This document shows, piece by piece, positions 9,334 to 59,301 of a DNA stretch of 64,000 nucleotides (positions within the stretch are counted from its first letter, which is position 1; every line of letters starts with the position of its first letter). Source of the DNA: Candidatus Poribacteria bacterium (lineage in GTDB: Bacteria > Poribacteria > WGA-4E > WGA-3G). The notes under the pieces are model-generated. The model saw only the letters and a program-made list of their open reading frames with translations. It did no database searches and was not told where the DNA came from. The stretch spans positions 4,128,001-4,192,000 of the forward strand of contig OZ243938.1 in assembly GCA_965214095.1 (NCBI GenBank). Direction: 5' to 3'. The position numbers and the translations under genes were made by a program.

Positions 9334-10091
9334 ATGGTACGCGACATCATAACCAATAAGTGGATACTTGGTGGTATATTACTGTTAATTATCATTGCCT
9401 GTGGGTGTTATTTTTGGTACCAATACACCCTTGCACCGTATAGAGAACAAGCCGCTAAGACTGAAGAAGTTGCTCGTAAATGGAAACTCGCTCAGAAAAC
9501 GAATAGCAACAGTGAGTCAGAAATAGCAGCCGATCAAACCCCTACGGATAGCACTGTGCCAACCGGAGAGAAACCGAGTTCACCTGAACTTCTACAGATC
9601 GGTGACATCGTGGATGGGAGAATATACTTAGGAACGGAACCCCCTTCACTAGAATTGCTCGCAGCATACGGTATTCATCCTCCATCTCAAGATGAGATTA
9701 TCTCTCCCTACGGGTTCGGACCTTATCCAGAATTACCGGAAGGGTTCGGTCCAATTACTTGGCCACGCAAGAGTGCTAATTCAGAATTGAGGATACTAAG
9801 ATCAAACTTCTAAAGCAAGGGGTACCTGTCGAAGGTTCTATTATGGAAAACGGCTTGGTATACCCGATCATAAAAGGTATCCGCTATGTAATATGGGGTG
9901 AGTCCGATGGAAAACAATATTTGCGAAGATCTCTGGGGCATCTTGATGATGGTGATTACATGAGGACTATCAGAAAGGAAAAAAAAGCGCGCGGTGAAAG
10001 CATAACCGCAGCCGATTTCCCCGGGATTAAACTTGTCCCTTTTGAAGAGGGCGGTATAGATCCCTATACTTTCCTTGATTTACCCAAATAA
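9334..10091 (+). pseudogene. Frameshifted membrane-anchored hypothetical protein
   Basis: MVRDIITNKWILGGILLLIII... ends at 9813. A second frame open from ~9799 (KIKLLKQGVPVEGSIMENGLVYP...) continues to 10091. Confidence 0.6.
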
Positions 10092-10114
10092 GGAGAATTA
10101 TTATCACGAAGACA

Positions 10115-10216
10115 AAGCACTCCAGCGGAGTGCTTTGTGTTGGAATCACATGCCGCTCCGCTGGAACAGAAACCTTGGTCCACAATGTGACTATAACATA
10201 TTGCTCCGCTGGAGCA
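10115..10216. repeat. Cluster of GCTCCGCTGGAGC-type short palindromes
   Basis: GCACTCCAGCGGAGTGC, GCTCCGCTGGAAC and GCTCCGCTGGAGC within ~100 bp. Confidence 0.6.
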
Positions 10217-10395
10217 AAGAGAAGTTTCATTCTGTCCAGTGTGTGCTGATTTGATAACATAAACGGTGATCCAAATGCTTGTCCCAACTTACGCTAGAAA
10301 AATTGTCCCAACTATAGTAATCTGAGGTAACATAACTAAAACATGAATGAGATACATTGTAGTATCTTCATTGACTACAAATACACAGCATTCCT

Positions 10396-11226
10396 CTATT
10401 GGTTTTCTGGTTCTACACTTTCCTCTTGTAATCCAAAAGGTTCTGTTAACCAATTTACAAATGCATCCGCATTTTCAAAAAATGAACGCATCAATGCGAA
10501 TTCTTCTGGTGTTGTAATTGCCGACATAAGATAACCTTCTTGTAGTCCGTAACTCTGGATACGGGATTTCCATGCTCTGTGAAACACTGCATTGTCTTCC
10601 ACCATTACTGCAGAAACTATACCCATCTTAATGATTTTGGACGAAAACCCACCGGTGTCAGAACTATTCTCCATTAATGGTTCGACCAAATGTTTTTGTA
10701 ATAAATCATTAAATTCTTTACTGGTATTTGCTTGGGTTTTGCCATCCCTACCCCATTCACGAAGTCTGTAATAGAAGTCTAACCAAATATTTTGGGTTAC
10801 CTCTCCAATGTCAGTTTCAAGAAACTGCGAGAGCCTTGACAAAACAACAGCTTTGTGATTCTGTGTTGGCATCATATTGATAAACGCAGCGTACTCGGAA
10901 TAATCTTCTCCATCTTGTAAATTCAAATATGTTAGATATGGCTCCGTAGATAACATGCTTTCTAATTCGTCTGGTTTTTCTGTTGTAGATATTTCAATAT
11001 GTTCCTTTAGTATTATTAAATAGAGTCTTTGTTGTTCTTCGTTAAGCGGAGTGTTAGCATACTGTCTGATTGAAATTGTATATTCCTCGTGTTTTTCTTG
11101 CATCTTGCCGAATTCTTGGACTATATCAACAATCCAAGGCACTACGAAGATTAAGCCAACAATTAGCAACAAGACTCCAATAATAGTTAGTATTAAACAT
11201 GTTGGTTTTTTCATTGGATTCTCCAA
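10396..11226 (-). CDS. Hypothetical protein with N-terminal membrane anchor
   Basis: Long ORF with one hydrophobic N-terminal helix and no recognisable family. Confidence 0.7.
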   Translation of the reverse strand: MENPMKKPTCLILTIIGVLLLIVGLIFVVPWIVDIVQEFGKMQEKHEEYTISIRQYANTPLNEEQQRLYLIILKEHIEISTTEKPDELESMLSTEPYLTYLNLQDGEDYSEYAAFINMMPTQNHKAVVLSRLSQFLETDIGEVTQNIWLDFYYRLREWGRDGKTQANTSKEFNDLLQKHLVEPLMENSSDTGGFSSKIIKMGIVSAVMVEDNAVFHRAWKSRIQSYGLQEGYLMSAITTPEEFALMRSFFENADAFVNWLTEPFGLQEESVEPENQ

Positions 11227-13289: not shown

Positions 13290-16214
13290 TCATCTGTTTT
13301 CCATATCAATAGGAATATGAAATATACCACGGTTCTTTGTTGCAATGTAAAAACGATCCTCATGTATTACAAGTTTACTAACTTGATCTGGAACCTCTGA
13401 GGATACCTTTACCCATACATCCTGTTCATCCAAATAGTATATTCCAGAATTATTGACACCATATATTGTAGTTCCCTTGACTGCTAAACTCACAATTTCT
13501 ATTGTTGAATCTGTATCATCTGTTAACACATTCCACGTGTCACCGGTTTGTGTATATAACACACCTTTGTCAGTTACAACATAAACTGCTGTGTCTACAA
13601 AGACAATGTCTCTGATGTGCTTATACGTCAGAGGCAGGTGAGTAGTAATCTCTATCCAATTTTCTCCGTCATCATTAGACTGAAATAAGTGACCGTCATC
13701 TTTACTAACATAAACTGTTTTACCATTTACAGCAAGACTGCCTCTGAAAAAACTAAAATCTTCACCTGTATTAAATCCAGTATCAATCCATTCAGAATGA
13801 CCGACGTAACTTTTAAATAGTCTACCATCACGTTCCACGTAGAATATATTACCAGAAACAGCAAGTCCTCCAATTGTAACAACATTGAGCATTGCCTGTA
13901 AATTCCGATATTGATCTGTCAATGCTTCAGTTTCTGTGGGGCCATTAGCAATGATTGATGCATCACTTTCTCCACTAGTTCTGATAAAGTTTTCGTTTGG
14001 TATGTACCCACTAATTGGTGGTAATCCTTCAACAGGAACTAATATTTCGTTGTTTGCAGAGAGACTGGCAATTCTCCACCTATTATCTACATCACGGGAA
14101 AAGGCGTAAAAGGTGTCGTTTGCAACCAATATATAAGGAAATAGGAAAAGACGAGTATTACCTGAATCATCAATCATATTTGTCCAAGTTTGTCCACCAT
14201 CAGAGGAACAAATCACCTCAAAACCGGAATGTGCGTATAGACGATCTTTGTATGACACTAAACGGTTTAGCTGGTTGCCTACAATCCCTTTCATAAATGG
14301 TTGCCACGATTCACCACCATCTGTTGTACGTTGTAGTTTGTAGAAACTTCCCTTAATGAAAGTGTCTTCATTTATTGCAAGAAAAGTAGAATGTATTCCA
14401 CCTGCTGAATCAATACTATATCCGAGATCTGTCCAGGTTTCACCTCTATCATGGGAACGGTAACTATTACCCAAACCAAATGCAATTAGTGTCTCTCCTG
14501 CTGCCAAGACACTTCCTCCCAATTTATTGCTCCCCGGAAGTAAGTCAACAATGCCTCTTTTTTTAGGTGATATTTTTTGCCATGAATCTCCCAAGTTATC
14601 TGAACGAAATATCTCCCACTTATTTGAAGTTTCCTTACGCATTATCTCTCGTATTAACTTGGTTTTCAACTCATCTTGTGTGAACTCGGTGTCGTTAGGT
14701 GTTGTCACTACATATATCGTCCTCTCAGTAACTGCCATTGAACCTATTGTTCTGAAAGTGCCCACAGTTAACTGTTCCCATCTATCAGACTTAAGTCGGA
14801 AGACTCCACGATCCGTACCGACAAAGATAGTATTCCCAATAGCTGCTGCAGTAGTAATTTCTCTATTCTGTATACCATCGATAAACAGTCCCCAATTTTT
14901 GCCGACATCCATGGAAATGAAGATCTTATCATCTATCACAAGGTAGAACTTTTCTTCAATTACGAACAATTCAATTGCTGTTCCACTTGGCCGTGAACCG
15001 ATAGAATTCCAAGTTATGCCACTATCTTTGGAAGCATAAATAGCATCCTCTGATACGATATATAGCACACCTTCCCATTCAGTCATAGGCATTTTATAGT
15101 ATGTATCAGATGGGACAGTATTGTTGAGTAGCACCCACTCACTGTTATCTTCTGTCATTTTATAGATACCTGTGGGTGAAACAACGATGAGATTTCCATC
15201 AGATGTCTGAAAAATCTCATTTACGTTTCCTTCTCCTGGACTTCTTGTCTGTGTCAAATTGTGGTTGAGAATAGAATCGTTGGACGGATCCCCTTGGTTT
15301 TCCGAGACTAAAACGGCTTCAGTTTCTTCTTTATTGGAACCATTGTTGTTTCCTATAACTATATTAGCATTTCGTTTCTGTATTTCAGGTTTCGGTTGGA
15401 TATCAAGGATAATAGGCGAATCAACGATCTCAATGCTGGTTTCTGACTGTGCATCTAAATCGTAAGGAATCTGAAAGAGAGTCAATAATTGATTACCCAC
15501 TCCCATCAGCAGAATTGCCAAAACAGCCACTGAACCTAACGCTGCCCAAGGTAACAAGGGTTTGGCGTTTACAGGTGCCGTTACTTCAATGCTATCAATC
15601 TGATCCATAATGTTCTGAGTAAAGTTGTTTGGCAGTTGTACACTCCCCAACGTTTCACGAATCATCAGTTCTTCCTCCTTCAGACGTTTCCGAGCTCGTC
15701 GTAGGCGACTTTTAATCGTATTTACGGATACACCTAAAAACCTACCAATTGCTTCTGATGTCATCTCACCGAGATAGTGTAGTGTAACAACTGTCCGTTC
15801 ACTCTCAGGCAATTTCTCAAGAAGTTTTCTTACAAGTTCGCGACGATGTTCAGCAGATGCTTTCTCTCGTTGTTCAACCAAATATCGTTCATAGTCAGTT
15901 TTTTCCAATAACGTTGTATCGGTGGCATCTAACGATTGCATAGCAGGTTTCTTCCTTCTGTGCCAGTCGAGGCAAAGGTTGTTGGTGATTACATATAACC
16001 ATCCGGCAAACTGATTCGGATTCTTTAGTGTCGCAAGTTTCTTGTATGCTTGTAGAAAGGCATCTTGGGCAATTTCTTCGGCTACCTGAAAATCTTCCAT
16101 CTTCCGCCACGCGAGTGCATGAACACTCTTTTGATATTTATTAACTAAGTCACTGAACGCTGAATCATCACCTAACAAGATACTTCGAATCAGTTCAACA
16201 TCGTTTCTTTCCAT
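13290..16214 (-). CDS. ECF sigma-70 factor with TM helix and large C-terminal BNR/beta-propeller extension
   Basis: Sigma region 2 (AEEIAQDAFLQAYKKL...FAGWLYVITNNLCLD), region 4 (LPESERTVVTLHY...SVNTIKSRLRRARKRLK), TM WAALGSVAVLAILLMG, and multiple S-x-D-x-G-x-[TS]-W Asp-box repeats. GGAGG RBS before ATG 16214. Confidence 0.9.
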   Translation of the reverse strand: MERNDVELIRSILLGDDSAFSDLVNKYQKSVHALAWRKMEDFQVAEEIAQDAFLQAYKKLATLKNPNQFAGWLYVITNNLCLDWHRRKKPAMQSLDATDTTLLEKTDYERYLVEQREKASAEHRRELVRKLLEKLPESERTVVTLHYLGEMTSEAIGRFLGVSVNTIKSRLRRARKRLKEEELMIRETLGSVQLPNNFTQNIMDQIDSIEVTAPVNAKPLLPWAALGSVAVLAILLMGVGNQLLTLFQIPYDLDAQSETSIEIVDSPIILDIQPKPEIQKRNANIVIGNNNGSNKEETEAVLVSENQGDPSNDSILNHNLTQTRSPGEGNVNEIFQTSDGNLIVVSPTGIYKMTEDNSEWVLLNNTVPSDTYYKMPMTEWEGVLYIVSEDAIYASKDSGITWNSIGSRPSGTAIELFVIEEKFYLVIDDKIFISMDVGKNWGLFIDGIQNREITTAAAIGNTIFVGTDRGVFRLKSDRWEQLTVGTFRTIGSMAVTERTIYVVTTPNDTEFTQDELKTKLIREIMRKETSNKWEIFRSDNLGDSWQKISPKKRGIVDLLPGSNKLGGSVLAAGETLIAFGLGNSYRSHDRGETWTDLGYSIDSAGGIHSTFLAINEDTFIKGSFYKLQRTTDGGESWQPFMKGIVGNQLNRLVSYKDRLYAHSGFEVICSSDGGQTWTNMIDDSGNTRLFLFPYILVANDTFYAFSRDVDNRWRIASLSANNEILVPVEGLPPISGYIPNENFIRTSGESDASIIANGPTETEALTDQYRNLQAMLNVVTIGGLAVSGNIFYVERDGRLFKSYVGHSEWIDTGFNTGEDFSFFRGSLAVNGKTVYVSKDDGHLFQSNDDGENWIEITTHLPLTYKHIRDIVFVDTAVYVVTDKGVLYTQTGDTWNVLTDDTDSTIEIVSLAVKGTTIYGVNNSGIYYLDEQDVWVKVSSEVPDQVSKLVIHEDRFYIATKNRGIFHIPIDMENR

Positions 16215-16250
16215 CGGAATCCTCCACCATAAAAAGTCTACGATTATTAG

Positions 16251-16279
16251 TGACGTAATTTTGTTGGCAAAAAGGTGCA
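16251..16279 (-). promoter_or_regulatory. Putative ECF-type (auto)promoter
   Basis: TGCACC-N18-CGTCA just upstream of the ECF gene resembles ECF -35/-10 elements. Confidence 0.35.
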
Positions 16280-16430
16280 AAAAATCAAAAAAAATGAATT
16301 AATCTTGAAAATGTCTGATTATAAATCGAATAATAGGTTGCAACCAAAATACAATAGACCTACTATATGGGTTGTATTCTTGATTAAATTACACTTGACA
16401 CAACCTGAACATACATATATATTAAACCAC

Positions 16431-29830: not shown

Positions 29831-30877
29831 TTACTGATCCTTCGGAGTTGCCTCTAAGGAATCCTGAGCGCGTTTCAACATCATCTCAGTTTGCCGTAGC
29901 AGATTTTCATTTTTCCCGTGATTAAGCAACTTCTCAAACACAACAATTGCCTTATCAAACTGCTTAAGGATATGATATGTAATTCCCAAATAGTATTGAG
30001 CAGGTTCAGACTCATTGCTTTCTGGATAATTTTCAATGACTTTTTGGAAGTGCATTACAGCTTTTTCTCCCAACTTTTCGTCACTCGGTGTTCGCTGTAG
30101 CTGCGTCGCATAAGCAACACCAATTTGTGTATGCAACTTAGTTACATTCCCTGATTCATTTTTCGTATCTTTTGCAAATACTTTTTCACTGAATGGGAGT
30201 GCTTTGTCAAGTTGTTGAATCTTCAAATATGCTAAAGCAAATTGACTGTTTAGTTCAAGATCATCTGGGAGTTTTTCACTGATTGGAAGGGCTTTTTCAA
30301 ATTGTTGACGATTTATATAGAGAATACCAATTTCTCGATTAAGTTTGAGGTCTTCAGGATTCTTCTTGTATTCCGCCAATTTTGCCTTGAATTCCATCTC
30401 TTTCTTGAGTGCCGTTTCCATTACTGGAGCGAATTTATCAGGAGGAAGATATCCTGATTGATTCGTAATTACCCCTCCATCTGGACTAACGAACACAATT
30501 GCTGGGAAACCTCTAACGCCATACTTTTCTCGTGTTTCCTCGTTTATGGGACGTTCCTCAATCTCTGGATTAACTTTGATGTTGATGAATTTATCTGAAA
30601 GTGAGATGACTTTCGCATCGGTGAAGGTGTCGGCATCCAGCCGTTTACACCAACCTCACCAATCTGTATAGAAGTCCATCATAATCGGTTTACCAGTCTC
30701 GGTGGATTGTTTTGTAGCTTCTTCTACTGTATCCACCCATTGGATTTGTGCTTCACTGGCTTCTTCGGTGGTAGTTTCATGATTATCAGCAAATACAGGG
30801 ATTGAAACTGCCATCAGTAATAGAGCAGTGAGTGCAGCAAAGTAACTGAAATGTTTTGGTACAACAGAATTAAACAT
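29831..30877 (-). CDS. Predicted selenoprotein: exported thioredoxin-fold (UxxC) protein with C-terminal TPR-like region
   Basis: ORFs 30656-30877 and 29831-30496 are in one frame. The in-frame TGA (30656-30658) gives MMDFYTDW-U-GWCKRL...YGVRGFPAIVF, and a SECIS-like hairpin follows. Confidence 0.85.
30626..30651 (-). promoter_or_regulatory. Bacterial SECIS-like hairpin
   Basis: GGTGT-AAA-CGGC-TGGAT-GCCG-ACACC immediately 3' of the UGA. The apical loop starts 16 nt after the UGA and contains G. Confidence 0.7.
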
Positions 30878-31128
30878 TAATTCTCTCCTAATTTTAATTT
30901 ACAATTAATATGTGGGTTCTGCTAAATCCACAATATATAAACCCATTCCTATAAAGTCGTATATCTTTTTGTACTTTCATAAGTATAGCAGCTATTATGA
31001 CGTCTGTCCAGAAAAATGATAAATTTGTGATTCCAGACCATTTGTAAGTTTTGCACACACCATGAATTATTATAGGTTGCAATTGCTTACTAAATTTATA
31101 CAGAAAACGATATTTTGTTCAGTATTGT

Positions 31129-32517
31129 TTACTTGCCAACACAGAACTGTGAGAAGATACGATCCAATATATCTTCTGTTGTTGTTTTTCCTACGATGTC
31201 CCCGAGTGCATCCAGACTTATTCGCAAATCAACAGAAACAAGATCAGGTGGCATCTCGCTTTCTAAGCTTGTGATTACATCATCAAGTGCTTTTTGAGAA
31301 CGTCGCAGAACGTCTTGATGACGCGTGTTAGTAATAATCGGTGAATCTCCGACAACAAAATCTCCACCAAGCAACTCATCAAGGATAGCATTCTTCAGAG
31401 CATCTATACCTATATCTGCCGTAATTGAAGTCTGGATGATACAAGCATTTGGACAATGGTCAGATAACTTCTGTGGATTTGTTAGTATAGGAAGATCAGT
31501 TTTATTTAGAATAAGAATCGCACGGTGGCACTTCGCAACTTCCAGTAATTCAATATCCGATTCATTCAATAGTTCTGATGCATCGAACATTAAGAGTAGT
31601 AATTCTACTTTATCAAGAACGTCTCTGCTCCGTTGAACACCTTGCTGTTCAACGATATCATCCGTTTGTCTGATTCCTGCTGTATCAACCAGATTGATAG
31701 GAATTCCACCGATATTAATTGTTTCCTCAATTGTGTCGCGTGTAGTTCCTGGTATGTCTGTGACTATGGCACGTGCAGTGGTTAGTAGGGCATTAAATAG
31801 GCTTGATTTTCCAACATTCGGTTTTCCTAATATGCCAACGTTAACACCTTCCTTGATAATTCTCCCTTCTGAAGCAGATTCTATCAACTGCGTTATATCC
31901 GCTTGGACTGTTCGCGCTGTCTGAAGTTGTGCGTCAACTTTCATAAAATCAAGGTCTTCATCAGGAAAGTCAATTGACGCTTCTATTTCTGCTAATAACT
32001 CTGCAAGACGATCACTTAGTTGATTAACACTTTCAGATAGTTTTCCAGAAAGAGCATCAACAGCGATTCTTCTGCTGAGTTCCGTTTTAGAACTGATGAG
32101 ATCTGCTACCGCCTCAGCCTGGGCAAGGTCTAGTCTTCCGTTGAGAAAAGCACGTTTTGTAAACTCCCCGGGTTCTGCGAGTCTTGCACCTGCTTCTACG
32201 ACCAATTCAAGAACTGATGTTAATGGAATAGAACCACCGTGGCAGTTGAATTCCACAATATCTTCAGTAGTATATGTATTGGGTGCATGCATCACTCCGA
32301 GCAGTATTTCGTCAACGATTTCGTCAGAAGCAGACGTGTCAATGACATATCCGTGTATAAGCGAGTGTGATGGTATTTCGTTGAGTAAAATGGCGCGGGA
32401 AGGACGAAACAGTTTGGATGCGATTTGGATTGCAAGCGAACCACTGACGCGTACTATCCCGATGCCGCCTTCACCTCGTGGTGTCGCAATGGCAGCGATG
32501 GTATCGTCAAATCTCAT
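31129..32517 (-). CDS. mnmE: tRNA modification GTPase MnmE
   Basis: DTIAAIATP.G.GGIGIVRVSG, GKPNVGKSSL, IPGTTRD, DTAG, NKTD, FCVGK. Confidence 0.98.
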   Translation of the reverse strand: MRFDDTIAAIATPRGEGGIGIVRVSGSLAIQIASKLFRPSRAILLNEIPSHSLIHGYVIDTSASDEIVDEILLGVMHAPNTYTTEDIVEFNCHGGSIPLTSVLELVVEAGARLAEPGEFTKRAFLNGRLDLAQAEAVADLISSKTELSRRIAVDALSGKLSESVNQLSDRLAELLAEIEASIDFPDEDLDFMKVDAQLQTARTVQADITQLIESASEGRIIKEGVNVGILGKPNVGKSSLFNALLTTARAIVTDIPGTTRDTIEETINIGGIPINLVDTAGIRQTDDIVEQQGVQRSRDVLDKVELLLLMFDASELLNESDIELLEVAKCHRAILILNKTDLPILTNPQKLSDHCPNACIIQTSITADIGIDALKNAILDELLGGDFVVGDSPIITNTRHQDVLRRSQKALDDVITSLESEMPPDLVSVDLRISLDALGDIVGKTTTEDILDRIFSQFCVGK

Positions 32518-32610
32518 AGTGCAATCCTGTTATATGGATATACTAGACAAGGTTAGCAAGGACTCGGTCAAATAGGTTTGAAATCTCACAAGTTTACTGA
32601 ATAGTTAAGG

Positions 32611-33237
32611 TCAATAGTTGTCTTGTGTTGCAACAACAACACGTCGCATATCACCTTCTCCTTGACTAAAGGTTGAGATGGAATCATCAGATTGTAGAGC
32701 GAGATGAACAATGCGTCGATCCTTAGCTGACATTGGTGCAAGGACAGCATCTTGTCGTGTCCGTCTGACCTTTGCTGCAACCTGATGGGCAAGGTCAACG
32801 AGAGACTGTTCTCTCCGTTCACGGTAACCTTCTGTATCAACAAATACCTTTTTCTTTGCAAGTGCATTTTTATTGATGATACAGTTGAGGATCCTTTCTA
32901 TAGCATCAAGTGTTTGTCCATGTTTTCCTATTAGAAGTGCTGGGGAGTCGGTTACCATGTCAAGGTGCAGACTACCGTCAATATGATCGGAATTAACCTC
33001 ACCCTCAATTCCAATGCGCGTAAGTATTTCTTTCAATACAGTTTCAGGTGCAGTCGTTACATCTTCTTTGAGAGTCGCACGGACTTTTGCAGGCTTTGCC
33101 CCAAAACTCAAAATGCCTTTAGTCGGTTCATTAATGATGATGATATTGACATGTTCGCGAGTTGTATCCAGTTCATTGAGTGCAAGATCAATAGCCTCTT
33201 CTACCGTTTCTGCTTCAGATTCAATATAGTTTTGCAA
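32611..33237 (-). CDS. jag: RNA-binding protein Jag/KhpB (EloR)
   Basis: Jag_N (TVEEAIDLAL), KH (LLIGKHGQTLDA), R3H (DRRIVHLAL...SQGEG). Confidence 0.93.
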   Translation of the reverse strand: MQNYIESEAETVEEAIDLALNELDTTREHVNIIIINEPTKGILSFGAKPAKVRATLKEDVTTAPETVLKEILTRIGIEGEVNSDHIDGSLHLDMVTDSPALLIGKHGQTLDAIERILNCIINKNALAKKKVFVDTEGYRERREQSLVDLAHQVAAKVRRTRQDAVLAPMSAKDRRIVHLALQSDDSISTFSQGEGDMRRVVVATQDNY

Positions 33238-33294
33238 GTGGCAACTCTCCTTTCATAAACAATCAGAAGATATTATATAACATCTATGTTAATC

Positions 33295-35130
33295 TTATTT
33301 TCGTTTCAGTGTATTTTCTTGTATATCGGGTTCACCATCGTGGAAATATTTTGTTTGTATATACTGTTGTGCAACAGTAAAGACATTATTGCAAAGCCAG
33401 TATAACACAAAACCGGAAGCCCAGTTGTAAAAAAGGAACACGAAGATTAGTGGCATAAACTGCATGATCTTAGCCTGTGTATTTGTCGTTGGGGGAGTTG
33501 CAGACATTCCTCCAACAAATTTCTGTTGAAGCCATGTGGTCAAACCATTTAGTATTGGCAAGAACCGTATTGCATCTATCTGTGTGAAAATCAATGGTAT
33601 AGTAAAGGGAAGTTCTATTAGCACATCGGGGGCAGACAAGTCATCAATCCAGAAGAAGAAAGGCGCGCCCCGCAATTCAACTGCACTTCCAAGTAGTGAA
33701 AAAAGTGCCCAGAAAATAGGGAGTTGTGGTAACCACGGGATACACCCACTTAATGGATTAACACCGTTTTCCTTATAGATACGCATTGTTGCTTTATTTA
33801 GTCTTTGTGGGTCATCCCGATATTTTTCCTTAAGTTCAACTAATTGCGGTTGTAGTTGCTGCATCTTCTTCATAGAAACATGCGCTTTTCGCGTAAGTGG
33901 AAAAGATATGATTTTCACTAATGCAGTCAAGATAATGATAGATAAACCATAGTTTTGAAACACTTTGTACAATTGTTTGACTAACCAGAGCATTCCCCAT
34001 GCAACAGGTCCGAAAAAACCGAAATCTATAACTTTAGAAAGAGCGAGAGAAGATTCGGGTGCGTTCGGCGCGACAATCTGTTTAAGCATTGCATCATCTT
34101 TGGGGCCGACATATAGACGAAATGTATGCGTTTGCATATTCTGAGATGATAGTTGAAAACTTGGTAATCTCAAACTAACTGTCTCTGTAGCAGCCGCAAT
34201 GAGAATATCTTTCTGTCCATTTGGTTTTGGACTATCCAATTTATAGGTTGCCTCAAGTTGCGGGTCGGGAATCATTATTGCACTAAAATAATTACTATTA
34301 ATCCCTGCCCAGAGAACAGTCGCATACACGAGTTCATTTTTCAGTTCGCGTTTAGGTTTTCCTGTACCGACATAAGCCCTTGCCCCTTCGGCTCCACGAC
34401 GACCAGGTTTTCCTGACTTTTTTTCGTGTATGAGCAGGTCAGCGTTGATTCCTGGTCCCCATCGCAGTTCGTAACCATTTGCAGGTTCAATTCCACCAAT
34501 ATGCAACGGCGTAGAATCTTCTTTCAAGTTTTGAAACATTACATCTAAATCTACTGTATAACTGTTGTTATAAAAGGTGAACCTTTTTGATATTTCTAAT
34601 TGGTCTTTGATTGTAGTTGTGAATGTAAGCGTATCTTGATTTCTTGTCTCATTGAGTTCAATGTTCTTCTTATCTGCTGTCCACTCAGCGCGTCGCAAAT
34701 CTAAATCAAATTGCAGGTCTTTATTACCCAGTTTTAGTGCGAGACAGTTGAGGGCAGTCTCAGGTATAAGGTTCAAAGGAGTATCAGTAGTGTCGGTTGA
34801 TCTGTCAGGGAATCGTAGGTTCCCATTTTCCTTCTTTTCCACCAAATCCCACCGGTGAGCGATCGCCAATTTCTCGTTAAATGTAACAGCATAGGTATTC
34901 GTTTGAACCTTGACAATTGGGTCATCAGGATTAACCTGAAAAGTAAGCTGCTGTCCCGAATCAGTTAAATCTGCTTCATTGGGTTCAACGCCGGGGATGT
35001 CGTCTTGTGGTGTCTGTTCAGTTATTGGTATTTCTTCTTGTTCTGGTGCAAAGCGATTGCCAAATATTAGTGTCCATGCAATCATGACTGCAAGCATTAG
35101 AACAACTGCAAGGATATATCGTGATCCCAT
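33295..35130 (-). CDS. yidC: Membrane protein insertase YidC
   Basis: LYVGPK, IDFGFF, NYGLSIIILT, NPLSGC, ELRGAPF.WIDDLS.PD, LYWLCNN. Confidence 0.97.
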   Translation of the reverse strand: MGSRYILAVVLMLAVMIAWTLIFGNRFAPEQEEIPITEQTPQDDIPGVEPNEADLTDSGQQLTFQVNPDDPIVKVQTNTYAVTFNEKLAIAHRWDLVEKKENGNLRFPDRSTDTTDTPLNLIPETALNCLALKLGNKDLQFDLDLRRAEWTADKKNIELNETRNQDTLTFTTTIKDQLEISKRFTFYNNSYTVDLDVMFQNLKEDSTPLHIGGIEPANGYELRWGPGINADLLIHEKKSGKPGRRGAEGARAYVGTGKPKRELKNELVYATVLWAGINSNYFSAIMIPDPQLEATYKLDSPKPNGQKDILIAAATETVSLRLPSFQLSSQNMQTHTFRLYVGPKDDAMLKQIVAPNAPESSLALSKVIDFGFFGPVAWGMLWLVKQLYKVFQNYGLSIIILTALVKIISFPLTRKAHVSMKKMQQLQPQLVELKEKYRDDPQRLNKATMRIYKENGVNPLSGCIPWLPQLPIFWALFSLLGSAVELRGAPFFFWIDDLSAPDVLIELPFTIPLIFTQIDAIRFLPILNGLTTWLQQKFVGGMSATPPTTNTQAKIMQFMPLIFVFLFYNWASGFVLYWLCNNVFTVAQQYIQTKYFHDGEPDIQENTLKRK

Positions 35131-35970: not shown

Positions 35971-36483
35971 TTAATTAATGTAAAGATACTTTTTCCACGA
36001 TGGATGATACCCACGAAAATGACGGTTGAGCTGCAAATAGGTCAAAATTGAAGGTGTTTTCGGTGCACGTCTCAACTTGAACTGCGTATCATGAAGCATC
36101 TGATTACCTTTCCTGTTATTGCATCGTTTGCATGCGGTCACAACATTCTCCCACGTCGTTTTTCCACCCTTTGAAATTGGGATGACATGATCAAGCGTGA
36201 GCATGGATGCAGTAAGTTCACGATGGCAGTACTGACAAGTATGCTGGTCACGTGCAAGTACGTTTTTCCGTGAAAACTTCACGACACTGCGCGGTACATG
36301 CACGTAATTTACTAAACGTATTACGTGCGGCACTTTGACTGCGGTTGATGGTGATTGTATTTCTTTTTCAGACACTTCTTCTGTCTGTGCTGTACCCTTG
36401 AATACCATTTTCAAGGCGCGTCTGAGATTGCAAACATTGATAGCTTCATAGCTTGCATTTAGTACCAAAACGGTGACTTCCAC
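35971..36483 (-). CDS. HNH endonuclease (HNH_5/McrA-like)
   Basis: VLVLNASY, FSRKNVLARDQHTCQYC, TLDHVIP.SKGG..WENVVTACKRCNNRKG. GAGGAGG RBS before GTG 36483. Confidence 0.9.
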   Translation of the reverse strand: MEVTVLVLNASYEAINVCNLRRALKMVFKGTAQTEEVSEKEIQSPSTAVKVPHVIRLVNYVHVPRSVVKFSRKNVLARDQHTCQYCHRELTASMLTLDHVIPISKGGKTTWENVVTACKRCNNRKGNQMLHDTQFKLRRAPKTPSILTYLQLNRHFRGYHPSWKKYLYIN

Positions 36484-36593
36484 TCGCCTGTCCTCCTCTA
36501 CAAGCAAGGCGTTCAGACTTTACGCAATCTAATTTTACCACATCTAAATGGGAATTGCAACTAAAAATCGGGCAATGATATTTATAACGTGTC

Positions 36594-48314: not shown

Positions 48315-49829
48315 ATGAAAACACAACGTCCAAATATCATTATCATAACAACTGACCAGCAACGAACAGATACACTGAGTTGCTACGGTTCCGATTTCAC
48401 AGACACGCCACATCTTGATCAATTCGCATCTGAAGGTGTGTGTTTAGAAAGAGCATACTGTACGAATCCAGTATGTACTCCTGCCCGTGCATCAATCTTT
48501 ACCGGCAAGTATGTCAGCCGACATGGCGCGTGGAATGTAGGAATGAACGTGCCTGAAGACGAACCGATGATCTCACATCGGTTGTCTGAAGCAGGATATC
48601 GCACGCACTATATTGGCAAAGCACACTTCCAACCCTTTGGTGCATCCCCAGAACATTCAATGGAAACAAGGAATAACACCGAACGCTATCCTGATTTCAG
48701 TGGTCCTTACTACGGATTTGAAACTATTGAGTTGGCACTTGGTCATGCAACTTATGGAATCGCCGGACATTACGGTGAATGGGTGCGTTCACAAGTTTCA
48801 GCGGATGAGTTTGCGAGTTTTAGCAAAGCGAGACGACTTTCTGAAACAGGTTTTGGTGGCGGGGCACATGATTGGGATATACCATTAAAATATCACAATA
48901 GCGTGTGGACAGCAGATCGCACAATTGACTTTATAAACAGTCATAATAAAGATAAACCGTTTTTATTGGCAGTCGGATTTCAAGATCCACATCATCCGCA
49001 CTGCGTCCCAACAGAATTTGCGGAACGTGTTGATCCTTCGGAAGTACCACTACCAGACTTCGTTGAAGGTGAGTTGGATGACAAACCACCTCATTTCCTG
49101 GAAGCACGGTGTGGACAACTAAGCAAATCCAAAATCCGCGGTAAGTTTGCTATGGCAGGTCAGGGCGGTGGGGCAGATTTTCGTAAAGTGTCAGAGCACG
49201 ATGCACGTATGGGTAGAGCATATTACTACAATATGGTGAAGATTATTGATCAACAGATGGGACGAATCTTGAAATGTCTGGATGAGCGTGGATTAAGAGA
49301 AGATACACTTGTGGTATTCACTACAGACCACGGTGAACTGTTGGGAGACCACGGTCTCTGGATGAAAGGTCCCTTCCATTACGAGCAGCTTATCCGTGTC
49401 CCAACATTGATGAGGTATCCTGCAGCTATTCCATCGGGGCAACGCACAGCAGCACTATTCAGTCATGTAGATATTGTACCTACAATCCTTGCTGCTGCGG
49501 GTTTGCCTATTCCTGCGGATTCTGATGGTGTTGACGCACTGCCATTGCTCTCAGGAGAACAGAAGTCTGTTCGTGATTCATTGTTGATTGAATGTGTTGA
49601 TGACCCAAATGGATTGCGTCTTAAAACGATTGTAACTGATACGAGAAAATTAACTTGGTATTGTGGACATCCCTATGGCGAACTCTATGATTTGGAAAAT
49701 GACCCAGCGGAACGAATTAACCATTGGGATAACCCAGATTATGCAACTGAAAAAGCCAATCTTCTAAGACGCATTCTTGAAGGAATGGAACCACTTGAGA
49801 GGCGTGTAGAACGGTTTGCCTATGCGTAA
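48315..49829 (+). CDS. Sulfatase (formylglycine-dependent)
   Basis: RPNIIIITTDQQR, CTPARASIFTG, GYRT.YIGKAH, FTTDHG, ELYDLENDP.E. Confidence 0.93.
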   Translation: MKTQRPNIIIITTDQQRTDTLSCYGSDFTDTPHLDQFASEGVCLERAYCTNPVCTPARASIFTGKYVSRHGAWNVGMNVPEDEPMISHRLSEAGYRTHYIGKAHFQPFGASPEHSMETRNNTERYPDFSGPYYGFETIELALGHATYGIAGHYGEWVRSQVSADEFASFSKARRLSETGFGGGAHDWDIPLKYHNSVWTADRTIDFINSHNKDKPFLLAVGFQDPHHPHCVPTEFAERVDPSEVPLPDFVEGELDDKPPHFLEARCGQLSKSKIRGKFAMAGQGGGADFRKVSEHDARMGRAYYYNMVKIIDQQMGRILKCLDERGLREDTLVVFTTDHGELLGDHGLWMKGPFHYEQLIRVPTLMRYPAAIPSGQRTAALFSHVDIVPTILAAAGLPIPADSDGVDALPLLSGEQKSVRDSLLIECVDDPNGLRLKTIVTDTRKLTWYCGHPYGELYDLENDPAERINHWDNPDYATEKANLLRRILEGMEPLERRVERFAYA

Positions 49830-51867: not shown

Positions 51868-53367
51868 TCAATTGTCATTAGGATAAGAGACATGATGTGC
51901 CTGCGGTGTTCCATGTCCATAATCACCATCACATGCAGTGAGAAGAATGGCACTCAGGTGCGACACTAAATCGGGGTGTTCAGCAGATAAGTCTTTTTCT
52001 TCACGATAGTCGTTAGACAGGTGATATAACTGAAAACTGTCATTTTTGTTGATATATCGTAACTTCCAACCATCTTCTGTCACCAGTGCAGGACCAAGCC
52101 GTGAGGCGTAGACTATCCACTCATGGTTCTGTTGTTCATCATTCTGTGCCGTTAAGGTTGGCAAAAATGAAACACCATCTTTCGCTTCTGGCATATCTAC
52201 ATCAACGAGTTCAGCAAGGGTCGGCATGAAATCGTAATTCGCAAGCATGTGATTTGACACACTGTCTGGTTCTATCATACTTGGATAACGGACAATATAA
52301 GGTATACGTGTGCCACCTTCCCAACTTGAGAACTTCAAACCAGCCATCCCATCGTTCCCATCAAATACATCTCCGCCAGTTTCTGTGTAGAATTTCGTCG
52401 TAATGTCATCAAAAGGTTCACCGTTCAAACCTTGCTGTCGTCCCGTAGTTCGTCCTTTTTGGCGGTAATACACTTCGTGTCCATTATCCGATGTAAAGAC
52501 AATCATTGTGCGATCATCTATCCCAAGTTTTTCAAGTTCATCTAAGATGATACCAACTGTCTCATCCAGTTTGAGAATCATAGAGGCATATTCTTTCTCA
52601 TAAGTCGTCAATTCAGATAAATTTTTGACTGATGGATGAATTTCAGGTATAGAGATAGGTCCGTGTGGTAACTGAGAAGGGTGGTATAGAAAAAATGGAT
52701 TATCTTTGTTCTTGCGAAGGAAATCAACTATTTTGTCGTTGAAAATATCTTGTGAATATACTGCTTTTCCATCACGGTTTCTGCGGATCTCCATATTTTC
52801 ATCTGATTCGGAGTTTGGATGTTTCGCACAATCGGTATGCGTATTACCTTGGATGTTTCTCAGTTCTCCGTTTTCAAAGAGGAATGGTGGGTAGAACCCA
52901 TGACATCGTTGATGATCATAGTAACCGTAATGATACTGCCATCCATGGCGGTGTATACGTTCTGCTGTTGTTGCAAAACCCCATTCAAGTTTACCAATCT
53001 GTCCTGTGGAATAGCCTGCTTCCTTTGGAATTTGTGCCAAGAACACATCGTTAGGTTCTGCCTGCAAACCGGTTGTATGGATTAACTCTGATATTTCATC
53101 ATACCTCATTTCACCAGTGCTGATGCTCTGGTATATTCCAGCTCGGGTATATGTCCATGTTCCTTGATGGCAATCGTGGAGACCTGTCAACATGCTGGCG
53201 CGAGATGGTGCACAGAATGCACAACCGTAAGCATGATTAAATTTCATGCCTTCATTGGCAAGACGGTCAATGTTGGGTGTTTCAAAATGCTGCTGTCCAT
53301 AGCAACTTAACATGCCCCGTCCAAGATCGTCTGCAAAGATGAGAATTACATTATGTTTATCGTTCAT
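51868..53367 (-). CDS. Sulfatase (arylsulfatase-like)
   Basis: NVILIFADDLG, CAPSRASMLTG, FTSDNG, WEGGTRIP. Likely start ATG 53367. Confidence 0.92.
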   Translation of the reverse strand: MNDKHNVILIFADDLGRGMLSCYGQQHFETPNIDRLANEGMKFNHAYGCAFCAPSRASMLTGLHDCHQGTWTYTRAGIYQSISTGEMRYDEISELIHTTGLQAEPNDVFLAQIPKEAGYSTGQIGKLEWGFATTAERIHRHGWQYHYGYYDHQRCHGFYPPFLFENGELRNIQGNTHTDCAKHPNSESDENMEIRRNRDGKAVYSQDIFNDKIVDFLRKNKDNPFFLYHPSQLPHGPISIPEIHPSVKNLSELTTYEKEYASMILKLDETVGIILDELEKLGIDDRTMIVFTSDNGHEVYYRQKGRTTGRQQGLNGEPFDDITTKFYTETGGDVFDGNDGMAGLKFSSWEGGTRIPYIVRYPSMIEPDSVSNHMLANYDFMPTLAELVDVDMPEAKDGVSFLPTLTAQNDEQQNHEWIVYASRLGPALVTEDGWKLRYINKNDSFQLYHLSNDYREEKDLSAEHPDLVSHLSAILLTACDGDYGHGTPQAHHVSYPNDN

Positions 53368-53386
53368 ACAATGTTCCCTAATAAGA

Positions 53387-54793
53387 TTACCGTTTCTGAA
53401 AGGCACGTTGGCGATAGAGATGTTCAAATAGGTTGCCTTCATGTGGACTATCCCAAGAAATCTGATTTGTAGGAATAGCACCTATATTTAGTCGATCTAT
53501 TTGAGGAGTAGTAATCAACTTCTCAATGAAATCTGCATCATCTGAAATAACAGATGCCACAAGTGTTGACCCAATGGATTCAACCAGTTGAGATGGTGGT
53601 ACTTCCACGACACTCACAAATGGAAAAGGAAACTCAGTGTTTGCCAACGGATGTTCTGGGTCTTCACACCAGATAACTGTAGGTCTTAGGAAAGTACAAC
53701 CGTCTAATTCAACAACGCGATCACCTTTAGTCAATTCTGTTGCGCCTGGTTCTTTCAGATGTCTGTCTATCAATGCAGAGATACTGTGGGCAGCCTTTGG
53801 ATTTGCCCACGCTGCAATACCTGCGTCAGGGTGGTCAAGGGGTTTCGGTTCAATTTGGGACAAGTGTAAGGCAATAGATTCAGCGATATCTCTGCCGTTT
53901 TCGGTTACCCACACCCCTGAAGCGTTGATGCATGACCTGCCTCCATTCTTTGATACCGATTCTACGATGAGATCCAGATAATCTTCCCATTTGTCATCTT
54001 TACCTTCATGAATGATAATTTTGCTACGACCTGGACCGTGTATTTCAATGCGTGGATCATTTACCCACGATGCGACAGTTGAGCCACTCCCAAAGAGCAT
54101 TGATCTTCCACAACGAAATAGTATTTCATTTGCCCCAGGATAATCGGTGGGATAGAAACTGAATGTTTCTGGAGGCATTCCTGCTTCCATAAATGCCTGA
54201 GCAATCCGATAAGGTGTCCACGGTTCCTCACGACCCGGTTTTAACACGAGTGGCACTTTTAAGGGGACAGCTGGAATCCACAACGAATGAACACCGGGAG
54301 AATTGCTTGGCAACACTGCACCTAATCCATCCGTTTCACAGACATAACTCATCGTCCGTTCATTTTGGATACCCCATCCTGCGTCAAGGATTTGTAAATC
54401 AAGTCCACGTGTCAAACCGTCTAAAACCGTTTCAATGTTCTCTAAGATTCCTTGTATTTTCCCCATGTTTTGTGAGCAGAGAGTTTCTGGTAGACCAGTT
54501 GTTCCAGATACTTGCTTGATATAATCCTCAGGAGACTGCATGCCGTCATCAAGTGGAAGGTCTGCGGTAGTGAATAGACGTGCTGCATCCAAGCATATTG
54601 CTATCAAGTCAGCGACAGAATATTGCGAAAGCGTCTGCTTATGGAGTGGTAAGTCAAGAAGGTCTTTTGCAATCAGTCCTCTGTTGGCTTGACTGACTTC
54701 AACTAAAGTCTCACCTGTTCTGATGTGTGATACTTTATTGGTTTTCAGACTTCTATAAGAACGTCCAGCGCGTAAAATTGGGATGTGTATCAT
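53387..54793 (-). CDS. Aldehyde dehydrogenase / acyl-reductase (LuxC/EhpG-like) family protein
   Basis: LPSNSPGVH.LW, LVLKPG.EEP, HGPGRSK, NGGRSCINAS (catalytic Cys), EFPFP. Confidence 0.8.
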   Translation of the reverse strand: MIHIPILRAGRSYRSLKTNKVSHIRTGETLVEVSQANRGLIAKDLLDLPLHKQTLSQYSVADLIAICLDAARLFTTADLPLDDGMQSPEDYIKQVSGTTGLPETLCSQNMGKIQGILENIETVLDGLTRGLDLQILDAGWGIQNERTMSYVCETDGLGAVLPSNSPGVHSLWIPAVPLKVPLVLKPGREEPWTPYRIAQAFMEAGMPPETFSFYPTDYPGANEILFRCGRSMLFGSGSTVASWVNDPRIEIHGPGRSKIIIHEGKDDKWEDYLDLIVESVSKNGGRSCINASGVWVTENGRDIAESIALHLSQIEPKPLDHPDAGIAAWANPKAAHSISALIDRHLKEPGATELTKGDRVVELDGCTFLRPTVIWCEDPEHPLANTEFPFPFVSVVEVPPSQLVESIGSTLVASVISDDADFIEKLITTPQIDRLNIGAIPTNQISWDSPHEGNLFEHLYRQRAFQKR

Positions 54794-58347: not shown

Positions 58348-59301
58348 TCACCATACCTTTAAATTATCGTAATAGATTACAGTTGCGGAATACCCGTAAA
58401 TGCCTGGACTCCCTTCACTATTTGGCCGTGGATCCTCTGCTGTAATAGTCCAGTCCTCTGGTTCGGGGTCATCTCTTCGCCATACCTTACCGTAAATCAT
58501 CGCTTTATCGTTTACAACTTCAACCTTCATTCTCATTGTATACCAAACATCGGTTTCCCATGCAAAGTCAATTGTCTTTGCCATCCGTAGGTCTGAAGCC
58601 CATGAACGAATTTGTAATCTTTGATGTCTACCCTGCATATCTAACGTATAACGGTTTGCAATTAATCCCATATCAGGTAAGCGGCGTTTATCCTTTGTGC
58701 CCATAAGGTCGATTTGAATCTCGTAGTTTTTCATTGTTGACGGTCCGATATAGACGTTGGAACGATTCAAACCGCGTTGCACAGGTGTCTTAACTAAAAC
58801 TTTCTTACCATCCATTTCTCGGACGAAAAACTTTCCGGTCGCGCCAATCCAATGTGTAGGAATCTTTTCAAGTTCTACCGATTCAAAGTTTTCTGTCCAC
58901 GGAAGAGGAGGAATTACCCGGATCCGAGCAGTTGCATTCATCTCACCCGATTGAGCGGTAACTGTGCCGGCATGTGCCCCTGCATTTACATCTGGTGTGA
59001 ATCTACTATCTTGAAGCGTTCCAGTTAAACCGGTTTTCACCCACTCTAATGTGTCGACCGTACTCGTCTGATTTCCACTTGCATCATAACCGATGACGGT
59101 TAATTCAACGGGATCGCCTGTTGTAAGAGACTCTGTTGGTGTTATCAGAAGGGAAACTGCAGGTTCAGTACTCATCGTTGGTTCTGTCATCTCTTTACTG
59201 GCACAACCGATAGTGAAAACGCAGACAACTAAACAAGCATAGACCACAAACGGACTAAGTGAGAATACATGCTGTTTTGTGGTTAAACTATATTTCTTCA
59301 T
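58348..59301 (-). CDS. Lipoprotein with Ig-like and C-terminal concanavalin-like beta-sandwich domain
   Basis: Lipobox FTIGC, LPWTENFE, WYTMRMKV...GKVW....EP.DW, IYYDNLKV. Confidence 0.65.
   Translation of the reverse strand: MKKYSLTTKQHVFSLSPFVVYACLVVCVFTIGCASKEMTEPTMSTEPAVSLLITPTESLTTGDPVELTVIGYDASGNQTSTVDTLEWVKTGLTGTLQDSRFTPDVNAGAHAGTVTAQSGEMNATARIRVIPPLPWTENFESVELEKIPTHWIGATGKFFVREMDGKKVLVKTPVQRGLNRSNVYIGPSTMKNYEIQIDLMGTKDKRRLPDMGLIANRYTLDMQGRHQRLQIRSWASDLRMAKTIDFAWETDVWYTMRMKVEVVNDKAMIYGKVWRRDDPEPEDWTITAEDPRPNSEGSPGIYGYSATVIYYDNLKVW

Follow-up and report, generated by a model that had tools for sequence, protein, structure and literature searches.

This analysis concerns a gene on the minus strand of a 64,000-nucleotide stretch of Candidatus Poribacteria contig OZ243938.1 (the 64-kb window, numbered here from its first letter), whose reading frame is interrupted once by a TGA that very probably encodes selenocysteine (Sec). 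A preliminary description of the sequence had proposed that this TGA is the sole stop between two in-frame open reading frames (ORFs) and that it falls exactly on the first Cys position of a thioredoxin motif. This is what we find, and reading TGA as U gives one product of 348 amino acids in which U74 is the only recoded codon. The product begins MFNS, the context of the recoded codon is DFYTDW-U-GWC-KRLDADTF, and GFP, AQYYLGITY and KAIVVFEKLL follow as landmarks further downstream. The gene and the elements assigned within and beside it, including a putative selenocysteine insertion sequence (SECIS) and a tail resembling tetratricopeptide repeats (TPR), are as follows.

29831..30877, minus strand: complete putative selenoprotein coding sequence, 348 codons plus a TAA stop, with a single in-frame UGA at codon 74
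30877..30656, minus strand: ORF upstream of the UGA, 73 codons, with this TGA as its stop
30496..29831, minus strand: ORF downstream of the UGA in the same frame, 221 codons, with a GTG start at 30496
30658-30656, minus strand: the UGA itself, proposed Sec codon, first position of the redox motif U74-G-W-C77 (30647..30658)
30631..30643, minus strand: conserved core of the putative SECIS, apical hairpin CGGC-UGGAU-GCCG, overlapping codons R79-L80-D81-A82
30617..30663, minus strand: full stem-loop in the window mRNA, with a 9-bp lower stem, a 5-bp middle stem and the apical hairpin
30788..30877, minus strand: N-terminal signal-peptide-like segment, residues 1-30, with K8/H9, the hydrophobic core FAALTALLLMAVSIPVFA and a VFA/D site
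30443..30742, minus strand: thioredoxin-fold domain, residues ~46-145, of Thioredoxin_7 / DsbD-gamma / DsbH type, with cis-Pro P125 (GFP)
29849..30442, minus strand: linker helix (residues 146-172) and TPR-like solenoid (residues 177-343), from the structural model and Pfam
30885..30889, minus strand: AGGAG resembling a Shine-Dalgarno sequence, 7 nt ahead of the ATG (30877-30875), by reading the sequence

A scan of species-representative genomes returned 136 relatives, and all locus counts given here refer to the best 80 of these 136. Apart from a few "uncultured bacterium" records, the 80 loci are titled as Poribacteria metagenome-assembled genomes (MAGs) or single-cell genomes. Full-length orthologous frames are found in 79 of them; in the remaining locus, L073, a contig end cuts the gene at residue 90, before the site, and it was left out of the TGA count. 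Together with the window, and with L076 counted twice for its two tandem copies, this makes 81 distinct orthologous genes. The TGA stands at the same codon in 81/81 and neither TGC nor TGT occurs in any, over protein identities to the window protein that range from 93% down to about 37%. Across the 81 genes both flanks of the UGA are conserved as protein with varying synonymous sites, and the residues preceding Sec (GKPIMMDFYTDW) are likewise kept while their synonymous sites vary. The motif itself takes several forms after Sec, with UGWC in 32 genes, UGFC in 31, UGAC in 5 and other variants besides.

Protein homologues were counted, after sorting by script, among 120 matches listed out of 146. 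Cys occupies the position of U74 in 25 of the 120, with a FYTDW-C-GWCK-type context in 23 of these, so the alternation of Cys and TGA at this site, which the preliminary description had put forward as a check, is present with the same flanks. Most of the Cys forms belong to a distant group of 24 proteins (P0098-P0121; Cys in 23, Trp in 1), some of them named as thioredoxin family and originating from Planctomycetota or Spirochaetota. The close group comprises 96 proteins (P0002-P0097), of which 88 start after the TGA (one of these gave a spurious pattern match), 6 have Trp and 2 have Cys at the site; where a source name is given, it is "hypothetical protein" or "TPR repeat protein" of Candidatus Poribacteria. 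Alignment of Cys homologues to the UGA is used as a selenoprotein criterion in the portion of PMC1976440 available to us. Judged from sequence, the gene has a conserved UGA with coding conservation on both sides and aligned Cys homologues, as expected of a bacterial selenoprotein gene.

These counts decide against the simplest alternative, in which the TGA is a nonsense mutation or sequencing error and the gene a pseudogene. One window alone cannot exclude such an error, and TGC or TGT in close relatives, together with a genome lacking Sec machinery, had been named beforehand as the sign of it; the close relatives carry TGA. Since the TGA recurs in 81/81 genes of independent assemblies, with the frame intact, the flanks conserved and no relative with TGC or TGT, a mutation or error is excluded as the source of this codon, and we give the pseudogene practically no weight.

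It could also be supposed that TGA is a sense codon throughout the genome, read as Trp (table 4) or Gly (table 25), and 7 proteins among the 120 matches listed do have Trp at the site. Three of these Trp proteins were compared with the loci and each is 96–98% identical over 95 residues to a locus that bears TGA, so we take Trp at the site to reflect gene calling under a code in which TGA is Trp. The window itself speaks against such a code, with 9 of 52 long ORFs ending in TGA (26 end in TAA and 17 in TAG), among them pdxJ, jag and the adjacent pseudouridine synthase gene; for pdxJ and jag, the family match stops no more than a few residues short of the TGA. The window has 26 in-frame TGAs flanked on either side by 40 or more open codons, and by eye only U74 lies in a redox context: the TGA at 58350 marks the place where two neighbouring genes meet, and the other 24 were also judged by eye. 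For this window a sense TGA is refuted by the ORF ends, and a genome-wide one is, in our view, extremely improbable. Among the Cys-type proteins there is one distant homologue, P0118, that reads FYTDW-W-SWCK at the site. From its sequence this Trp may likewise stand for a TGA translated as Trp, in which case Sec forms would extend beyond the close Poribacteria group.

The expectation that standard annotation would miss the gene was borne out, as the 88 of 96 close proteins that start after the TGA are entries without the upstream part. Taken at face value, this annotation describes two products, an exported peptide of 73 residues and a TPR protein of 221 residues from the GTG at 30496, with the hairpin after the UGA serving for coupling or mRNA stability. 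A GTG start does exist, and the majority of the close database entries listed are annotated in this way. The split, however, cuts through the thioredoxin fold and leaves the U/C-x-x-C motif and most of the domain, including cis-Pro125, untranslated, whereas codons 75–127 are conserved as protein with varying synonymous sites. The Cys homologues are single chains and the model of the full-length protein is confident across the junction. We consider a pair of separate products very unlikely.

The hairpin that had been described downstream of the UGA, GGUGU-AAA-CGGC-UGGAU-GCCG-ACACC, is present in the window with a G in its loop and a spacer of exactly 16 nt from the UGA to the loop, but only part of it is general: the GGUGU/ACACC stem and the lower stem beneath it are specific to the lineage of the window, and conservation across the family is limited to the apical stem of 4 bp and the loop. 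Folding of an 81-nt stretch gives −27.7 kcal/mol, with z = −3.32 against dinucleotide shuffles, a value equalled by 1 of 200 shuffles. The window fold has a lower stem of 9 bp that includes the UGA itself and a middle stem, GGUGU/ACACC, of 5 bp. Across the family, pairing of these lower and middle helices reaches only 83% and 66% of cells respectively, with scant compensatory change, and they were rejected as a conserved element. The complete named structure scores 82% compared with 31–49% in slid controls, a comparison in which the structure was derived from one of the sequences compared. Because the larger stems are not general across the family, we define the conserved element as the 13-nt apical hairpin, which begins 12 nt downstream of the UGA.

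This hairpin, CGGC-UGGAU-GCCG, is the sole consensus structure returned by RNAalifold on an ungapped alignment of the 81 sites, and it is paired in 81/81. One of its pairs (alignment columns 32-42) is formed by G and C in 74 genes and by A and U in the other 7, where an amino-acid-changing substitution, Arg CGG to Gln CAG, is accompanied by a silent one, Ala GCC to GCT, and the pair is kept. The apical loop has G at position 2 in 81/81 genes and reads UGGAU, except for UGGAC in 2 genes.

The codons overlapped by the hairpin were inspected in a threaded alignment of the whole gene from the 81 genes. R79 is CGG in 74/74, with six synonymous codons possible, L80 is CTG in 81/81, D81 is GAT in 79/81 and A82 is GCC in 74 and GCT in 7. 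Codon entropy elsewhere in the gene is 1.2–2.3 bits in other conserved Leu columns, 1.70 bits at the invariant R190 and 1.55–1.93 bits in conserved Ala columns, and the synonymous constraint at codons 79–82 is local. Two more codons of the gene are nearly frozen, V5 (30863-30865; GTT in 71/73) and L314 (29936-29938; CTT in 70/73); the former may reflect constraints near the translation start.

The proposed fit to the bacterial SECIS model is upheld by the fixed loop base, the frozen synonymous sites and the one compensatory pair. The 13-nt hairpin is similar to the minimal upper hairpin of E. coli fdhF, which functions when placed a short and constant distance away from the UGA. The 9-mer core of the hairpin occurs 91 times in the window and loci, 79 of these being in orthologues; none of the other 12 occurrences has a TGA at the right distance. 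The consensus for bacterial SECIS elements has G at position 1 or 2 of the apical loop (PMC13582414, in the part available), and the family hairpin fits it because the second loop base is G in 81/81. By its sequence the apical hairpin would thus be a SECIS-like element of the stem-loop kind that accompanies bacterial selenoprotein genes.

At the protein level, Pfam assigns residues 40–152 to thioredoxin-like families, with Thioredoxin_2 (PF13098) at 3.5e-15 and 56.7 bits, Thioredoxin_7 (PF13899) at 4.3e-13 and 49.6 bits, and DsbH/DUF255 (PF03190) at 2.5e-12 and 47.5 bits; the Pfam cut-off is 27 bits for each and all three exceed it. TPR families cover residues 271–324 (TPR_1 at 1.4e-09, TPR_2, TPR_6 and TPR_19). 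An AlphaFold2 model, based on an alignment of 37 sequences and with C substituted for U, has a mean predicted local distance difference test (pLDDT) of 89.8 and a predicted template modelling score (pTM) of 0.79. Residues 1–40 are of low confidence, with a helix at 10–23, and the domain starts at residue 46. Across the UGA junction the pLDDT is 96–98 over residues 50–130, and it stays above 94 throughout the linker helix and all-alpha solenoid (residues 146–343). Apart from the N-terminal segment there are no membrane helices in the model. The frame had been said to run on through a cis-Pro motif, GFP, and P125 does sit there in the thioredoxin fold; U74/C77 and P125 are invariant in protein alignment A4. 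The 348-residue product with a signal-like N-terminus and a TPR tail, also part of the preliminary description, agrees with the TPR matches and with the solenoid of the model.

Sequence and model together show a thioredoxin fold of Thioredoxin_7 / DsbD-gamma / DsbH-like type. Residues 1–40 would fit a signal peptide plus linker, and export with cleavage at VFA/D is predicted. Many orthologues start MFNSV(S/F)RRISLG (for example L012:10001-10906 and L006:10001-10912), which resembles the twin-arginine motif S-R-R-x-x-L; the window protein has VPKHFSY at this place instead. Judged by these N-termini, the export route may be Sec (the general secretory pathway) or Tat (twin-arginine translocation) and may differ between lineages.

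Searches for named relatives place the thioredoxin domain more clearly than the whole chain. The best solved relative by sequence is a putative disulphide isomerase from Bacteroides (2kuc, 1.4e-11), followed in the Protein Data Bank (PDB) by PDI-family proteins (PDIA3), DsbD-gamma and TXNDC12. By profile and structure the closest thioredoxin domains are DsbD-gamma (1vrs, 2fwe) and DsbH (2ju5), with target-normalised template modelling scores (TMt) in Foldseek of 0.77–0.79 for 1vrs and 0.70 for 2ju5. Both are reductase-type domains that lie outside the cytoplasm. All 16 NCBIfam matches fall below their curated cut-offs, so no current naming model labels the window protein. The best of them is the DsbD-like C-terminus of selenoprotein TsoB (1.5e-21, 76.1 bits against a cut-off of 805), and DsbD (NF001419; 1.5e-17, 63.4 bits against 330) and DsbH (4.9e-13, 49.5 bits against 190) are also matched. 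Membership of DsbD was rejected, as the score is 63.4 against 330 and only a gamma-like domain is present, with no membrane beta domain; unlike DsbD, the window protein is without a membrane or alpha domain, has the motif UGWC and carries an added TPR tail. The families seleno_TsoB (NF045694) and trx7_PDZ_seleno (NF041199; 26.3 bits against 300) are likewise selenoproteins with a Thioredoxin_7 / DsbD-gamma domain. Membership of either was rejected, with scores far below the cut-offs and only the thioredoxin domain aligning; their partner domains are rhodanese/DsbD or PDZ, while that of the window protein is TPR.

The whole-chain architecture is closest to YbbN, a cytoplasmic protein, which gives the top whole-chain Foldseek matches in PDB (E. 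coli 3qou at E 9e-08, then Salmonella 3qdn). In YbbN, also called CnoX, the thioredoxin domain is N-terminal and the TPR domain comes after it, the same order as here. It differs from the window protein in that the latter has Sec, a signal-like N-terminus and a thioredoxin domain of DsbD-gamma/DsbH type. No match to PF14561 (TPR_20) or to a YbbN family model was obtained for the window protein, which places it outside YbbN by sequence; PF14561 is precomputed for a few orthologues among the matches listed. The available part of PMC10998233 describes cytoplasmic YbbN/CnoX as combining redox and holdase functions, and some YbbN proteins as having an active CxxC motif and reducing disulfides.

Selenoproteins of the general kind to which the window protein would belong, with a thioredoxin fold and UxxC, are well known. 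Table 1 of PMC1976440, in the portion at hand, lists thioredoxin-fold selenoproteins including "Thiol:disulfide interchange protein", "Thiol-disulfide isomerase-like protein", Trx and DsbG-like. The known UxxC/CxxU proteins share with the present one Sec in place of the first Cys of CxxC, the existence of Cys homologues, a stem-loop with a loop G after the UGA and truncation of the gene by standard annotation. The window protein differs from them by its TPR-like solenoid of ~200 residues and its gene by being a syntenic core gene across one phylum. What is new is the TPR fusion, the phylum-wide occurrence of Sec without a Cys form in the 81 genes and the unusually rigid mini-SECIS. A literature search, with the supplements of selenoprotein databases outside its scope, returned no description of a thioredoxin-TPR architecture as a selenoprotein. 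Poribacteria, TPR and thioredoxin are unmentioned in the main texts of BSepDB (PMC13326102) and deep-Sep (PMC12013277), as far as these were available and with supplements that could list the gene, and DsbD is likewise unmentioned in the available main text of BSepDB (PMC13326102). In PMC9999580 the word "selenocysteine" occurs in the reference list only.

Taking this evidence together, the region is with high confidence a genuine selenoprotein gene, and the whole is in all likelihood best explained by a 348-residue exported Sec thioredoxin-TPR protein whose UGA74 is decoded via the hairpin. We infer that the residue inserted at UGA74 is Sec rather than another. During translation UGA74 would be read as Sec, with CGGC-UGGAU-GCCG acting as a bacterial SECIS that recruits SelB, with its Sec-tRNA(Sec), to a ribosome pausing at this codon. 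The N-terminal signal peptide would then direct a mature protein of about 318 residues out of the cytoplasm. Its redox centre would be a selenenylsulfide/selenol-thiol pair, U74-G-W-C77, facing cis-Pro125, and a long helix is predicted to join the thioredoxin domain to the TPR-like helical solenoid. Sec, at the N-terminal attacking position, could act in thiol-disulfide (selenenylsulfide) exchange on envelope proteins.

The function put forward in the preliminary description, a redox or chaperone protein, would be compatible with this architecture. The likeliest role would be that of a thiol-disulfide oxidoreductase in the periplasm, with a client protein or a partner bound by the TPR arm, so that the protein may be the exported, Sec-based counterpart of the cytoplasmic "chaperedoxin" YbbN/CnoX. 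Our confidence in a periplasmic oxidoreductase/holdase role, suggested by analogy, is much lower than in the selenoprotein call. A further extension, in which the protein is an extracytoplasmic selenium-dependent "chaperedoxin" that holds envelope proteins and protects them by its redox activity, core since the radiation of the Poribacteria, with the 13-nt hairpin as a recognition code for SelB, we regard as speculative and rather unlikely.

A number of observations weigh against the interpretation as an exported, hairpin-dependent Sec protein. With regard to the RNA element, only 59 of the 81 genes show the apical hairpin in their minimum-energy fold; the other 22 have a different predicted fold, with a longer stem competing in many. 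Covariation is thin: there is a single compensatory pair, seen in 7 genes and possibly going back to one or two events, and the otherwise invariant sequence of the apical stem argues for constraint, not specifically for pairing. Rfam returned no match at gathering threshold over the whole window and, at E of 10 or less around the site, just four chance matches to archaeal snoRNA. The spacing of 16 nt lies at the short end of the range for bacterial SECIS (bSECIS) elements, reportedly 16–37 nt in the model of Zhang and Gladyshev from 2005. With regard to the protein, the superposition on YbbN is poor (template modelling score (TM) 0.25–0.30, root-mean-square deviation about 21 Å), so that domain order is shared but arrangement is not, and a paralogue (L063, L079 and copy 1 of L076) is without a hydrophobic N-terminus. 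With regard to the machinery, none of the 51 scanned ORFs in the 64-kb window matches selA, selB or selD, and tRNA-Sec is absent from the window, which holds no tRNA at all. Neither was tRNA-Sec found in any of the 80 loci, whose proteins were not scanned for sel genes.

The paralogue is itself of interest, as it has a TGA at the same codon in the context TDS-U-xxC (L076:8338-9603, L063:9995-11215 and L079:10010-11251). It has a longer C-terminal repeat region as well as lacking the hydrophobic N-terminus, and in L063 its ATG is closely preceded by a stop. The copy in L076 sits in tandem upstream of the main copy at 10001-11161, and those in L063 and L079 do not share the yidC-mnmE synteny of the main gene. 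Going by these sequences, the paralogue may be a cytoplasmic sister selenoprotein.

For the genome of the window, the presence of Sec machinery is supported indirectly, by published tables for other Poribacteria genomes. In the available part of PMC5649159, SelA and SelB clusters of orthologous groups (COGs) co-occur in most sponge-symbiont bins, and the column Ca_Poribacteria_WGA3G of its supplement, counted by hand, lists SelA 2, SelB 1 and SelD 1. Locus L027, which comes from a contig of this Candidatus Poribacteria bacterium WGA-3G, bears an orthologue with TGA. The accessible text of PMC13582414 reports Sec-type group 4 hydrogenases in Poribacteria, and its Supplementary Table 1 gives SelA, SelB, SelD and two tRNA-Sec for a Poribacteria MAG.

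These tables also bear on the possibility that hairpin-assisted recoding of the UGA inserts a residue other than Sec, such as Cys via a tRNA of tRNA(ReC) type or Trp by near-cognate read-through. According to the part of PMC13582414 available, tRNA(ReC)-like tRNAs occur in some Sec-using genomes and are reported to recode UGA with a downstream SECIS, and nothing in the window identifies the tRNA used. Cys, on the other hand, could be inserted more cheaply through TGC or TGT, yet 0/81 genes have either, and SelA, SelB and SelD are listed for Poribacteria including the orthologue-bearing WGA-3G. Insertion of a residue other than Sec seems to us improbable, and we retain Sec as the residue at U74.

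The gene lies at a conserved chromosomal position, next to the following features.

30982..31010, minus strand: weak match to a sigma-70-like promoter, TGGACA-17-TATACT and a TG ahead of the −10, within the 251-nt gap that follows mnmE
31129..35130, minus strand: upstream neighbours outside the gene, yidC (33295-35130), jag (32611-33237) and mnmE (31129-32517), from NCBIfam

A promoter scan of the 251-nt gap gave 6 sites against 4.6 expected in shuffles, which is not significant. The orthologue lies downstream of yidC-jag-mnmE on the same strand in 66–68 of the 80 loci, and a convergent block of pseudouridine synthase, HAD, pdxJ and gdh genes lies opposite it in 50–65 of 80. Because the yidC-jag-mnmE neighbourhood is conserved in this way, the gene is a vertically inherited core gene, with its own upstream gap of 251 nt. 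The neighbourhood yields no functional partner.

Elsewhere in the window, two minus-strand ORFs at 183-1223 and 35971-36507 have partial NCBIfam matches to the RNA-guided endonuclease IscB (93 and 57 bits against a cut-off of 175) that cover different parts of the profile, and both may be IscB-like or HNH sequences left behind by mobile elements. An ORF of 996 residues at 13290-16280 (minus strand) combines an extracytoplasmic function (ECF) sigma-70 match at ~23–203 with an F510_1955-family glycosylhydrolase at 822–988, an unusual fusion if the ORF is real. Sulfatase-family ORFs are found at 51868-53481 and 53387-54793 on the minus strand and at 48315-49829 on the plus strand. Between the first two there is an overlap of about 95 nt, and the match of the downstream one to arylsulfatase falls into two separate pieces, which could be due to a frameshift, a start-site problem or a fusion.

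The most immediate consequence of the Sec assignment is an annotation error that extends across a phylum, in that 88 of the 96 close database entries among the matches listed are without the catalytic half of the protein. The gene also carries an RNA signal within a coding region, with four codons held at one synonymous choice across 81 genes, and the paired amino-acid-changing and silent substitutions that preserve a base pair make it a clear case of such a signal. The element offers a practical probe for other selenoprotein genes of Poribacteria and for the specificity between SelB and SECIS; if the reading as a chaperedoxin with a SelB code is true, the hairpin would serve to find the remaining selenoproteins of Poribacteria. 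Among the envelope redox systems characterised so far, none is known to combine an exported thioredoxin domain with a TPR arm and a Sec nucleophile. Finally, a core selenoprotein at a fixed chromosomal position implies that the use of selenium is ancestral in the sponge-associated Poribacteria and has been maintained in them.

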